From IMG/VR virus record IMGVR_UViG_2721755711_000002: 64,000 nucleotides of DNA; one strand, given 5' to 3'. Position numbers and translations under genes: made by a program. This document shows, one piece after another, positions 40,865 to 51,924 of this stretch (its first letter is position 1; each line of letters starts with the position of its first letter). The notes under the pieces are model-generated. The model ran no database searches and was not told the DNA's origin. It saw only the letters and a program-made list of their open reading frames with translations. The DNA is from a virus. Taxonomy: Duplodnaviria; Heunggongvirae; Uroviricota; Caudoviricetes.

Positions 40865-42091
40865 ATGCATGGACTAGTTTTGACAACAGCCGGGGCAGCC
40901 GAAATTGAAGCTGCATATCATGCCGGTGAGGTGGTGACCATCAGTCAGGTGATGATTGGTGACGGGGGCGGGAAAACACTGCCCTCAACGCCGGATGAGA
41001 TGGCGGCGATGGTCATGTTGTGTGGTGAGTTTGGTCGGGAGCCCTTTTCAGGCGGCGTGGTGGACGAAGGTTTTATCAGCGGGGATATTGTCATTGACTG
41101 TCAGTCATACCCGGGTAAGACCCTGCGCGAGCTGGGAATGGTGAGTCATCGTGGTACGCTGATTGCGTATGGTCGTTATCCGGATACGTATTTACCGGCA
41201 CAGACGGATTCCGTTATCAAGGAGGTGATACTGACACTGGTTCTTGCGCTTACACATACACAGAGTGTAACGCTGAATGTTGATCCGCACAGGGCGATTA
41301 TCACGCAGGAGGCCGGAGATAAACGATATCTGCGTATCAGTGAAAATCTTGCTGATGTGAAAGACAGGGATGAGGCTGTTGAAAACCTCGGATTAAAACC
41401 TACGGTGGACAAGGCAAAAAATGCCGTTCAGCGTGATGGCGACACCATGACAGGAAAGCTGACGCTGCCCCAGACCTCCGGATTTGGTGTTAACACTGAC
41501 AATGCCCTGGGCGGTAACTCAATTGCTCTCGGAGATAACGATACCGGTATAAAGCAAAACGGCGACGGCATTCTGGATGTTTATGCGAATGGTCAGCATG
41601 TATTTCGTTTTCAGAATGGCGTGGCGATGGCGTTAAAAAATATTCAGGCCGGAAATGGCAGAATGTTTACGCTATCCAGTTCTGACAGTTCCACGAAGAA
41701 CGTAGGGTTTAATTTATGGGGCAATCCATCCAGACCTGTAGTTGCAGAACTTGGTGATGATTCCGGCTGGCATTTCTACAGTCAGAGAAATACAGACGGT
41801 AGCGTCACATTCGCTGTAAACGGACAGATGACCCCATCAAACTACGCAAATTTTGATGCCCGCTATCAGACAAAAACAGGTGGCGTGCAGAATTTTCAGT
41901 ACACCAGTGAGGTGTTTTACAACCCGGGAGGGAACGAACTCAGCTGGACGTTCCGCGCACCGTCTGGTTGTACCCTGTCCGGTATTCTGGTTCAGGATAC
42001 CGGCAGAAACTCTGCGGATAATATCGGTGGTGTGTATTACAAACAGGCCCAGATTTATATAAATGGCGCATGGCGCTCAGTATCAGGTTAA
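40865..42091 (+). CDS. H: tail fibre protein (P2 gpH-like)
   Basis: N-terminal ...TTAGAAEIEAA...MIGDGGGK... and C-terminal ...NALGGNSIALGDNDTGIKQNGDGILDVYANGQHVFRFQNGVA... match remembered P2 gpH. Confidence 0.8.
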   Translation: MHGLVLTTAGAAEIEAAYHAGEVVTISQVMIGDGGGKTLPSTPDEMAAMVMLCGEFGREPFSGGVVDEGFISGDIVIDCQSYPGKTLRELGMVSHRGTLIAYGRYPDTYLPAQTDSVIKEVILTLVLALTHTQSVTLNVDPHRAIITQEAGDKRYLRISENLADVKDRDEAVENLGLKPTVDKAKNAVQRDGDTMTGKLTLPQTSGFGVNTDNALGGNSIALGDNDTGIKQNGDGILDVYANGQHVFRFQNGVAMALKNIQAGNGRMFTLSSSDSSTKNVGFNLWGNPSRPVVAELGDDSGWHFYSQRNTDGSVTFAVNGQMTPSNYANFDARYQTKTGGVQNFQYTSEVFYNPGGNELSWTFRAPSGCTLSGILVQDTGRNSADNIGGVYYKQAQIYINGAWRSVSG

Positions 42092-42104
42092 TTAAGGAAA
42101 AATA

Positions 42105-42632
42105 ATGGAACTCGTAAACGTTACGCGTTACTACCCTGAAGACATGCCTTATGGTGAAGGCATTCAGTATTTCCGTAGTGAAGACGGGCAGGATTTTTAT
42201 GAATCACTGGATAAATTCACGAAGAAATACAAGCTGTGCACGCATCCTGAAACCGGCGTTATTTATTCAATGGCGGAAGACGTATCCCGGCTTTATCCGG
42301 CAGGTTTTACCATTGTGGAAGTGGATGAACTGCCGGAAGGTTTTGGCATTGAAGCCAGCTGGTATTACAAAGACGGAGAAGTGCTGCCGGTGCCTGTTGA
42401 TTACTCGCGACTGGCAGAAAAAAAACGCCAGAGCCTGCTGAATGAAGCAAAGGACATCACCTCCGACTGGAAAACCGAGCTGGAGCTGGGCACCATCAGC
42501 GATGATGACAAAGCCCGTCTTACGCAATGGATGGCATATATCAAAGCGGTAAAGGCGCTGGATTTAAGTCAGGTCAGTGATGAATCATCTTATAATGCCA
42601 TTGAGTGGCCAGTACCTCCACAGAACATCTGA
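42105..42632 (+). CDS. G: tail fibre assembly chaperone (P2 gpG / Tfa-like)
   Basis: 175 aa directly after the fibre gene; conserved C-terminal ...SYNAIEWPVPP. Confidence 0.8.
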   Translation: MELVNVTRYYPEDMPYGEGIQYFRSEDGQDFYESLDKFTKKYKLCTHPETGVIYSMAEDVSRLYPAGFTIVEVDELPEGFGIEASWYYKDGEVLPVPVDYSRLAEKKRQSLLNEAKDITSDWKTELELGTISDDDKARLTQWMAYIKAVKALDLSQVSDESSYNAIEWPVPPQNI

Positions 42633-42650
42633 AAAAGAAGTTAATCAACA

Positions 42651-42676
42651 GACCGCCTTTAAGGGCGGTTTTTTTA
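42651..42676 (+). terminator. rho-independent terminator between fibre-assembly and sheath genes
   Basis: ACCGCC TTTAAG GGCGGT followed by TTTTTTT. Confidence 0.55.
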
Positions 42677-49856: not shown

Positions 49857-49879
49857 AGTTTTTCTCGCGATAAATTAAA

Positions 49880-50428
49880 TCAGGAAGAGGCTTCCGGAGA
49901 GACGGGCCATTCAATGGCGTTATATGAGGCTTTATCAGTGATGGTGCTGAAATCCATCGCCTGCAGCGATTTCGCGTAAATGCGGTACGCTTTCAGCTTT
50001 TCCCTGTCTTCGTCGCTGATTAATCCCAGCAGCAGGTCTTTTTCCCATTCGCTGGTCATGATACTGACCTGTTTTAACAGGGCATCACGCTCGTCTTCCG
50101 CTTTAAGTTTGTAGTCGAAAACAAATTCATCATTGCGGTAAAACCAGTAGCCTGATGCTTCAATGCGACGATTAGCGGTAATATCCGGCAACTCAATCAC
50201 GCTTTTATTTTCCGGGCAGATTGAGGTGATGTCTTTTCCGACCCAGACCACTTCGCCAGTTTTAACATAAATAACTTTCAGGGTGTCTGGTAGAAATTTT
50301 TCCTGGGCTTCGTGCCATTCCTGTCCATCATCTGAGAACAGCCACAATAAAAATTTATGCTGTCGCGCCAGCTGGTATTGCTCAATTGTTTTAGGGTTTT
50401 GTACCGTAATATTTTTTAAGTGCATCAT
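49880..50428 (-). CDS. tail fibre assembly chaperone (Tfa-like)
   Basis: 182 aa; C-terminus ...SYNAIEWPVSP; directly downstream of fibre gene. Confidence 0.8.
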   Translation of the reverse strand: MMHLKNITVQNPKTIEQYQLARQHKFLLWLFSDDGQEWHEAQEKFLPDTLKVIYVKTGEVVWVGKDITSICPENKSVIELPDITANRRIEASGYWFYRNDEFVFDYKLKAEDERDALLKQVSIMTSEWEKDLLLGLISDEDREKLKAYRIYAKSLQAMDFSTITDKASYNAIEWPVSPEASS

Positions 50429-50430
50429 GA

Positions 50431-51924
50431 TTACAAACTCGCTACATTTCTCCAGACGCCATTAATCAGAACCTGCACCGGGCGTGCATTGGCCCAGTTC
50501 ACACTTTCACCGCCATCAACACCACTCAGTAAATGACCTGATGGCGCATTTCCCCCGCGTCCAATACCAATGGCGCTTCCCAGACGTACATCCTGCACGC
50601 CGCCTGTTTTGGTCTGATAGCGGGCATCAAAGTTTCCGTAGTTTGATGGAGTTATCTGCCCATTTACAGCGAATGTGACGCTATCGTCTGTATTTCTCTG
50701 ACTGTAGAAATGCCAGCCGGAATCATCACCAAGTTCTGCAACTACAGGTCTGGATGGATTACCCCATAAATTAAACCCTACGTTCTTCGTGGAGCTGTTG
50801 GAGCTGGATAGCGTGAATTTTTTACTATCCCCGGCCTGAACGTTTTTAAAAGCAATAGCAACTCCATTCTGAAAGCGAAATACGCGCTGATTATTAGCAT
50901 AAACATCCAGAATGCCATCGCCGTTTTGTTTTATACCGGTGTCGTTATCTCCGAGAGTAATGGAATTACCGCCCAGTGCGTTATCCGTACCAAGCGCCAG
51001 CCCACCATCAATTTTGGCCCCGTGGCTGACAGATATAGCACCTGTTCTCAGATTTATAGCAAATGGCCTTAATGGGCCAATATCGCCATTCTCGCCCTGA
51101 CCTTCACTGGTAGGGATAAGGTGCAGGCACTCTTCCGAACGACGAAAAATCAGGCCAAAAGCGTCGTTGAAAATCCTCAGCGCATTAACACCACGGATTT
51201 TCAGCTCCCCGGTCATCAAATCACCAGATTTTTTTACATATCGCAGATCAAAATCTGAATAGATATTGCCGGGGTTTATCACGCTGAAATAGCTTTTCTC
51301 GTTATCAAGAAGGCAAATCAAAGGAATACCTTTAATGATATCATTCGCTACCAGCTCGGACTTGTTCCCCTTATAAAGTGGGAACGTACCAAGAACCTTT
51401 CCGCCTAGTGTTAGTTGAAGTGTCGCCGCGTTGGTATTGTTCTGAACGGGGAAAACGATAATCGGGGTTCGTAGTGTCCAATCTGTACCTTCATTAACAA
51501 AAAACGTCGAGGGAAGCTCCAGCGTCAGTGTGTTTGCAGTGCCACCAGCAACACCCGCAATATAATGACCGCTCTGAAGCTGCGCTATCTGTACGAAATA
51601 GTTTTCCGAACCACGCGTGGCAAAGTTAGCCACAACGTCATTAAGGGACCAACCTTTCGCGGTTGTTCCTTCCTGCCCACGAATGACTTTCAGCACATCG
51701 CCGCTTACTGATACCAGGTGACAAATCTCAAATGCAGACTCTTTATTATCGGTAAGCGTAATTTTTGCATAGACGCGTTGCCCGTTCGATTTATTTTCAA
51801 AATCGGCAGAAAGCAATTTTGCAAATTTAGCTCCCGTGCCCGGCATCACCGGAATATCAGTCTGAATCGTCGTGATATCGCCAGCCAGTGCTGAAACAAC
51901 GTTATTGCCAAATCCAAGAATCAT
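50431..51924 (-). CDS. tail fibre protein
   Basis: 497 aa; C-terminal roughly 200 aa nearly identical to the H-like fibre at 40865..42091; start overlaps upstream stop (ATGA). Confidence 0.8.
   Translation of the reverse strand: MILGFGNNVVSALAGDITTIQTDIPVMPGTGAKFAKLLSADFENKSNGQRVYAKITLTDNKESAFEICHLVSVSGDVLKVIRGQEGTTAKGWSLNDVVANFATRGSENYFVQIAQLQSGHYIAGVAGGTANTLTLELPSTFFVNEGTDWTLRTPIIVFPVQNNTNAATLQLTLGGKVLGTFPLYKGNKSELVANDIIKGIPLICLLDNEKSYFSVINPGNIYSDFDLRYVKKSGDLMTGELKIRGVNALRIFNDAFGLIFRRSEECLHLIPTSEGQGENGDIGPLRPFAINLRTGAISVSHGAKIDGGLALGTDNALGGNSITLGDNDTGIKQNGDGILDVYANNQRVFRFQNGVAIAFKNVQAGDSKKFTLSSSNSSTKNVGFNLWGNPSRPVVAELGDDSGWHFYSQRNTDDSVTFAVNGQITPSNYGNFDARYQTKTGGVQDVRLGSAIGIGRGGNAPSGHLLSGVDGGESVNWANARPVQVLINGVWRNVASL

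Follow-up and report, generated by a model that had tools for sequence, protein, structure and literature searches.

A shaft module shared in inverted orientation by the tail fibres of two prophages in an IMG/VR virus record

The IMG/VR virus record IMGVR_UViG_2721755711_000002 was analysed over 64,000 nucleotides (nt; this whole stretch is called the window), with emphasis on positions 40865-51924, where the tail genes of two unrelated, presumably defective prophages, A and B, run towards each other and each tail carries a main fibre gene (fibre A, fibre B) followed by a gene for a tail-fibre assembly chaperone (tfaA, tfaB). Comparison of the two fibre genes showed that they share an internal segment of 399 nt (133 codons), aligned without gaps at 88.2% identity (47 mismatches, blastn E 5e-126) and lying in opposite orientations, i.e., an inverted repeat that is real and far beyond chance. 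The shared segment stops short of the fibre ends; the probable receptor-binding tips differ, as do the fibre-binding domains of the two chaperones, and the feature is standard tail-fibre mosaicism, already known in kind. The parts of the two fibre operons are as follows.

40865..42091, plus strand: fibre A, the main P2 H-like 'tail-collar' fibre gene of prophage A; 408 amino acids (aa) from the ATG at 40865, 410 aa from the GTG at 40859
41495..41893, plus strand: copy A of the shared shaft module (fibre A, aa 213-345), with a T4 gp34-like 'GDDSGWHFYSQRN' motif
41894..42091, plus strand: tip A, the last 65 codons and stop of fibre A, its probable receptor-binding tip; not shared with fibre B
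42105..42632, plus strand: tfaA, tail-fibre assembly chaperone of fibre A, 175 aa (PF02413, E 6e-21)
49880..50428, minus strand: tfaB, tail-fibre assembly chaperone of fibre B, 182 aa (PF02413, E 2e-22)
50431..50589, minus strand: tip B, the last 52 codons and stop of fibre B, a putative Mu S-like receptor-binding tip that aligns with the Mu S C-terminus
50590..50988, minus strand: copy B of the shared shaft module (fibre B, aa 313-445), which forms the inverted repeat with 41495-41893
50431..51924, minus strand: fibre B, the main fibre gene of prophage B, 497 aa; annotated in relatives as 'hypothetical protein' or 'phage tail protein'

The borders of the repeat are sharp. Measured in 30-nt steps, identity was 73-100% within it and dropped to background (17-33%) just beyond either edge, and in its 131-nt core (41690-41820) two mismatches separate exact runs of 32, 76 and 21 nt, the longest of the repeat being that of 76 nt. 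At the protein level, aa 208-345 of fibre A and aa 308-445 of fibre B are identical at 119 of 138 positions. A match to the shaft domain of T4 gp34 (4uxe/5nxf, E 1e-8) was obtained with the fibre B copy, and fibre A has the identical residues. The module, sharply bordered and shared by otherwise unrelated fibres, is found on several N-terminal scaffolds, namely collar-type, B-type, a 322-aa fibre beginning 'MHRIDTL…' and PF08400-type fibres. The original prediction had the C-terminal ~200 aa of fibres A and B nearly identical; this holds for the module, which makes up about two thirds of the claimed length, but not for the last 65 and 52 aa, respectively, which have 17 identical residues. By-eye likeness of fibre 'C-termini' can end before the receptor-binding tip, and the present case is a caution to that effect.

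Upstream of the module, the N-terminal regions are unrelated, as had been predicted and as protein comparison bore out: fibre A begins with a collar domain (PF12571, aa 6-150, E 2e-16), while the N-terminal 300 aa of fibre B matched no Pfam family. Downstream, residues ~354-496 of fibre B align with residues 359-503 of the phage Mu fibre protein S (5yvq, E 3e-9), whose tip has a solved structure and binds Tfa, and tip B and Mu S have the motifs APSGH…RPVQ.…ING.W.NVAS in common. By analogy with Mu S, we read the extreme C-terminal part of each fibre as its receptor-binding tip. The case is weaker for tip A, which resembles tip B only in the APSG…ING.WR motifs. Since each fibre has its own tip and its own chaperone fibre-binding N-domain, and judging from the divergence of both, fibres A and B most likely recognise different receptors.

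Each fibre gene is directly followed by a PF02413 (Caudo_TAP) gene, after 13 nt in prophage A and 2 nt in prophage B, as is characteristic of mosaic fibres. The encoded proteins, TfaA and TfaB, are 32% identical overall, with 26 of 97 residues (27%) identical in the N-terminal part and 32 of 75 (43%) in the C-terminal part, and their genes have only one similar stretch of DNA, 167 nt at 65%. Near-identity of the Tfa C-termini, which had been claimed together with that of the fibres, was therefore not found, and DNA comparison of the two fibre regions gave the expected long repeat in the fibre genes but not in the tfa genes. Nor are receptor-binding ends and chaperones duplicated, as had been proposed, since the tips and the fibre-binding N-domains of the Tfa proteins differ. 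Tfa proteins combine a variable fibre-binding N-domain with a C-terminal helical domain that is conserved (North et al., 2019, summarised in PMC9608196). Since the C-domain is conserved in general, the resemblance of the two Tfa C-termini is a family-wide pattern and not the result of recent exchange. This modularity is also seen here, in that the N-domain stays with the tip while the C-domain has been swapped independently in relatives; e.g., in L012, whose fibre A is identical, the Tfa N-domain is 96% identical to that of TfaA and the C-domain 41%. The 3' part of tfaA (42405-42617), which encodes the conserved C-domain, forms a separate mosaic patch.

The fibres and chaperones of both prophages recur in other genomes. 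The exact 408-aa fibre A protein is present, with gene order kept, in five other NCBI assemblies, and TfaA and TfaB occur unchanged in many more assemblies than these five. Exact TfaB was found in 162 blocks of the public collection; in 10 of the 10 contigs listed, a full-length Stf-type side-fibre gene and a DUF4376 gene come next. Fibre B is 99.9% identical to its counterpart in the unrelated strain F2_407_2_2. These occurrences bear on the interpretation given in the original prediction, i.e., that receptor-binding ends and chaperones were recently copied between the co-resident prophages, leaving both with one specificity. We regard such a recent copy as very improbable. It would account for the sharing of the 399-nt repeat, and an exchange of exactly this kind has taken place in E. 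coli PapRG-04-4 (see below), but the tips and the Tfa proteins differ to the extent given above. Since the two module copies are 12% diverged and both alleles pre-exist, unchanged, in other genomes, recent exchange within this genome is not supported.

Recombinants were found in other genomes. A 1.35-kilobase (kb) query consisting of the fibre A module, tip A and tfaA was compared with 5426 complete E. coli genomes and matched 232 of them, as well as Yersinia myophages; the genes matched were named tail-collar fibre, phage tail protein or prophage tail fibre N-terminal domain protein, and match boundaries recurred at both module edges and at 42404. Tip A and tfaA move together behind various upstream modules in other genomes (H66-H71), with the breakpoint at 41891-41894. 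In two further fibres the crossover could be placed. The 322-aa fibre P0003, which has a third N-terminal scaffold, is A-type at 11 of 11 discriminating residues between 223 and 276 and B-type from residue 314 through the entire B tip, so that its crossover lies within the near-identical core; in P0008, a complete A-type module is followed by the B tip, and the crossover lies at the module edge. The A-type prophage of E. coli PapRG-04-4 encodes a 455-aa fibre that consists of the first ~190 aa of fibre A and a last 268 aa that are fibre B-like (95%), followed by a Tfa protein 97% identical to TfaB. Both prophage types are present in PapRG-04-4, in direct orientation at the ompW and uspF sites, with 150 kb between them. 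In nucleotide sequence, its own B fibre matches the B-like half of the A fibre at only 79%, so that the co-resident B prophage was not the donor and exchange in situ between co-resident prophages has no support. The fibres of P0003, P0008 and PapRG-04-4 support the view that cassettes of tip and chaperone have been exchanged between the A and B prophage lineages at the population level; the horizontal exchange of specificity put forward in the original prediction thus stands between lineages, but not between co-resident prophages. Overall, its observation was partly confirmed and its interpretation partly supported.

We consider the following explanation highly probable. The module would be a patch of homology drawn from a common pool of building blocks of enterobacterial phage tail fibres, and homologous recombination through it, by RecA or by phage recombinases of the Red/RecT type, would move a cassette of tip and chaperone from one fibre scaffold to another; the inverted arrangement would be an accident of two prophages lying tail-to-tail and not a programmed switch. 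Transfer of fibre genes among unrelated phages has long been established (Haggard-Ljungquist, 1992; Sandmeier, 1992, 1994; cited in PMC3945230). The mosaic fibres of P2 (H/G), Mu (S/U), P1, lambda (Stf/Tfa) and T4 (gp37/gp38), known since 1992, show a like make-up: their N-terminal attachment parts are unrelated, shared internal segments are sharply bordered, a chaperone gene of family PF02413 comes after the distal tip, one segment occurs on several scaffolds, and in recombinants the crossover lies within what is shared. There is no difference of principle from these systems; here the partners lie 8.7 kb apart, inverted, in one sequence. Phage Rad52-like recombinases recombine diverged sequences, and relaxed recombination between temperate phages and defective prophages, with stf and tfa among its substrates, resembles the present case in being driven by homology over diverged patches (De Paepe et al., 2014; PMC3945230). 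That system is experimental, whereas the exchange considered here is read from sequence, and no recombinase gene of prophages A or B was identified in the window.

Some points weigh against this explanation. Tips A and B have the motifs APSG…ING.WR.V in common and thus belong to one fold family; the census of scaffolds is incomplete, the protein homology search having listed only proteins of at most 332 aa; and if assembly made the sequence join at 49223|49224, discussed below, in error, the genes of fibres A and B do not lie side by side and any local inversion between them lapses, though the homology of the modules stands. With these reservations, exchange through the module provides a clean, quantified example, with crossovers mapped, of how specificity cassettes (a tip and the fibre-binding domain of its chaperone) shift between unrelated prophages via a conserved shaft module.

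The original prediction also held that the inverted repeats bracket the P2-like sheath-to-D block of prophage A and make it prone to inversion. In this sequence they do bracket it: the two module copies enclose 8696 nt, comprising tip A, tfaA, the sheath-to-D block, two truncated Stf genes, tfaB and tip B. The arrangement rests, however, on an anomalous join, that at 49223|49224. If the two copies crossed over in their 76-nt exact run, ~9 kb would be inverted and the matching chaperone would follow each hybrid fibre. When the inversion was made in silico at the module, both hybrids were intact and in frame, one of 397 aa (A N-terminus and B tip, then tfaB) and one of 510 aa (B N-terminus and A tip, then tfaA). 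An exact run of 76 nt is longer than the minimal homology needed by RecA. For this reason, and because Rad52-like recombinases tolerate divergence (PMC3945230), rare homologous inversion between the module copies is conceivable, but it depends on the two tail modules being truly adjacent.

A programmed inversion, in which a serine invertase flips the DNA between fibre genes and so switches host range, as in the G segment of Mu (Gin), the C segment of P1 (Cin) and the P segment of e14 (PinE, PinQ; PMC12529663), is in our judgement extremely improbable. The geometry is superficially alike, with two sets of tip and chaperone in opposite orientation whose inversion would swap them in frame, and a Mu-like prophage is present, whose gin-like gene, if any, would lie beyond the left edge of the window. 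However, no Hin/Gin/Pin-like gene was found in the 64 kb by tblastn with a Hin query sequence (E up to 10), and none is annotated beside these fibre genes in relatives, whereas segments of this type have a serine invertase gene next to them. In such systems a constant N-terminal part lies outside the segment and the alternative C-terminal parts inside it; here there are two complete fibre genes, each with its own, unrelated N-terminal part, belonging to separate prophages. In addition, some 6 kb of essential tail genes lie inside, and where such systems have short (~26 bp) inverted crossover sites at the border of constant and variable parts, the window has 399-nt repeats made of diverged coding sequence.

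The join on which the inverted arrangement depends lies between two truncated side-fibre genes and is the only unusual element here.

48591..49226, plus strand: Stf-type side-fibre gene of prophage A, truncated to codons 1-211 of 474 (PF08400, E 1e-56), with a stop codon created by the join
49191..49856, minus strand: Stf-type side-fibre gene of prophage B, truncated to codons 1-211, after which the frame reads on into the A arm (PF08400, E 3e-62)
49223..49224, no strand: mirror join, where nt 633 of Stf A (…AAT CGC CTG) meets the reverse complement of nt 633 of Stf B (…AAT CGT TTA)

The join is blunt, without filler, and has at most 1 nt of microhomology. Around it extends a quasi-palindrome (48584-49863) with arms of ~640 nt, symmetric about 49223.5 and 92% complementary over the inner 425 nt; this is the strongest inverted repeat within 40865-51924, and the original prediction did not mention it. 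Folded as DNA, the 200 nt around the join gave -111.5 kcal/mol (z = -24), with a perfect stem of 35 base pairs and an 8-nt loop. On the A side, Stf is colinear with the full-length genes of relatives up to nt 633, after which these continue TCAGAGCTGG; on the B side, it is 99.9% identical to NZ_CP074756 down to window position 49221. In every relative that reads through, of either prophage type, a 474-aa Stf and a DUF4376 gene are followed by host DNA (ompW/yciE, smpB, uspF/ompN, pphA and other sites), whereas both copies in the window stop after codon 211 and no DUF4376 gene follows.

Full-length Stf alleles read …AATCGCCTG|TCAGAG… or …AATCGTTTA|TCAGAG…. Since these alleles show both versions, the eight central bases of the join represent synonymous versions of codons 210-211 from the two genes. 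The alleles of these codons (Arg-Leu; window 49218-49223 and 49224-49229) are CGCCTG and CGTTTA, each occurring, in different genomes, with A-like or B-like upstream sequence; in the Stf of PapRG-04-4, the allele bases are at nt 630, 631 and 633. The join (GTTTACAGG) was also considered as a gix half-site on the strength of a 9-nt resemblance, and this was dropped, the eight 'spacer' bases being the synonymous codons just described. The first 250 nt of Stf are strongly diverged between the prophage types, and the distal half (from nt 634) and DUF4376 form a ~1.35-kb cassette, absent from the window, in which A-type and B-type prophages from unrelated strains are 98-99% identical (L001:17372-18704 versus L002).

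Homologous recombination cannot join two N-terminal halves in this manner, as a matter of reasoning, so that two origins of the join were weighed, and of these an assembly artefact is the more likely. On this account, which we tentatively favour as somewhat better than an even chance, the two tail modules are not adjacent; assembly or finishing linked contig ends at a multi-copy repeat (Stf distal half and DUF4376), both Stf genes are full length, and the prophages lie at separate sites. We lean to it because the break exactly follows the last allele-specific bases, because no tail-to-tail arrangement was seen in any assembly examined and because the two prophages are in direct orientation at those sites that most relatives use. 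The join falls right after the biallelic site CGCCTG/CGTTTA, the last difference between A and B before a cassette stretch of ~1.15 kb that is 98-99% identical, and several public short-read contigs end 19-176 nt past the join point (L004, exactly 127 nt). The window has no exact repeat of at least 77 nt, which is compatible with k-mer assembly. The join occurs in none of the 5426 complete E. coli genomes and in no other assembly examined, and a 30-mer across it was absent from genome, viral and metagenome contigs in three contig-collection scans; with a 21-mer, the only match among genome contigs was an unrelated Planctomycetota contig, by chance. Look-ups of public proteins likewise returned no exact match elsewhere for the two truncated Stf proteins, for gpD or for the fibre with the GTG start. 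In PapRG-04-4, moreover, the two prophages are in direct orientation at sites also used by most relatives, where a simple deletion could not yield the join.

Some observations do not fit an artefact well. We can name no routine operation of an assembler by which the two unique ends would be cut back to the exact base and linked with no Ns between them; the window's other unusual boundary, that of the Mu-like insertion at ~26.49 kb, looks biological; and a random symmetric break would fall just after a polymorphic base with a chance of ~8%, which is not negligible. A literature search on palindromic misassembly gave cases from whole-genome amplification and from plastids only.

The other origin, a real join, is possible although we hold it to be less likely than not to be true. 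Two convergent, adjacent and defective prophages would have lost a near-identical inverted repeat (Stf distal half and DUF4376) by a symmetric deletion driven by a hairpin or cruciform, leaving a diverged, tolerated quasi-palindrome. Exact mirror symmetry is what such a deletion would leave, and the perfectly matched part would start just past the join, where the mismatches of the arms stop. Prophage A is presumably already inactivated by the Mu-like insertion, so that further decay costs nothing. Inverted repeats in E. coli are lost by slipped misalignment and are stabilised without SbcC (PMC11754738), and trimming of cruciforms by SbcCD (PMC4787754) is a conceivable route to a real symmetric deletion. 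The instability of long palindromes and inverted repeats in E. coli would thus supply a possible origin, but the deletions described normally end in short direct repeats (PMC4787754, PMC11754738), whereas the Stf join has at most 1 nt. The deletion also requires prophages lying tail-to-tail with little between them, an arrangement seen in 0 of the 5426 complete genomes and in no relative, and joining at a homology of at most 1 nt. Joining of this kind is rare in E. coli. Furthermore, by reasoning, a 2-nt mismatch would not halt the zipping of a kilobase hairpin, so that the structure does not force the exact position.

If the join is real, an enterobacterial chromosome would naturally contain a quasi-palindrome whose arms are ~640 nt long. 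A stronger combination, in which a perfect inverted repeat of kilobase scale was lost symmetrically and the repeat of the fibre modules also serves as an invertase-free, homology-driven switch of tip and chaperone over ~9 kb, appears improbable. If, as under the favoured artefact, the join is false, the bracketing of the sheath-to-D block by the fibre repeats does not exist in the real genome. An apparent architecture, such as repeats that bracket a tail module, can rest on a single questionable assembly join.

The rest of the window was assigned to the three prophages (Mu-like, A and B) as follows; no host genes were recognisable in its 64 kb.

1 to ~26,486 (~26.5 kb), minus strand: Mu-like prophage, with the transposase at 23083-25125
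up to 49223, plus strand: prophage A, with a lambda-like head and a P2-like contractile tail
42650..42671, plus strand: terminator-like hairpin after tfaA, a 9-base-pair stem with 5 G-C pairs, then a T run (consensus match only)
42689..48566, plus strand: P2-like sheath-to-D block of prophage A (sheath, tube, tail assembly chaperone, tape measure, gpU, gpX, gpD)
49224 to the window end, minus strand: prophage B, a myovirus of a different type from prophage A
51921..53757, minus strand: baseplate genes of prophage B upstream of fibre B, for a 208-aa protein and a 408-aa baseplate J/gp47-like protein (PF04865, E 5e-8; RefSeq annotation of relatives)

The Mu-like prophage is 94-96% identical to Mu-like prophages in many E. 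coli and is inserted in prophage A between the lysis genes and the terminase; A-type homology resumes at 26493, and the other Mu end and any target duplication lie beyond the window. Prophage A is split by this insertion and hence presumably defective. The closest complete-genome relative of its tail is that of E. coli PapRG-04-4 (97.7%), and identity to draft assemblies was 99.2-99.4% over 17 kb. For prophage B, strain F2_407_2_2 has a prophage of 99.9% identity.

The sheath-to-D block is 98-99% identical in nucleotide sequence to those of relatives (L012, L029), and its families, read on the orthologues of L012, are PF04984/PF17482, PF04985, PF10109, PF06995, PF05489 and PF05954. Sheath, tube, gpU, gpX and gpD stand in P2 order downstream of an H-G operon, as in a P2-like contractile tail module. 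In P2, the sheath-to-D genes form a separate transcription unit. The hairpin after tfaA suggests that here, too, they are a unit of their own, separate from the fibre operon. A second terminator-like hairpin follows the tube gene (44699-44716). Further upstream in prophage A, the S49 protease/scaffold gene (33196-34812) contains an in-frame tandem repeat (34179-34679) with a unit of 138 nt, 3.6 copies and 84% matches. Amid the tail genes of prophage B, positions 53800-55448 hold a gene for an LprI-family lipoprotein (minus strand) and one for an AntA/AntB antirepressor (plus strand); the cargo at this spot in relatives is a type I restriction-like HSDR_N protein or small open reading frames.

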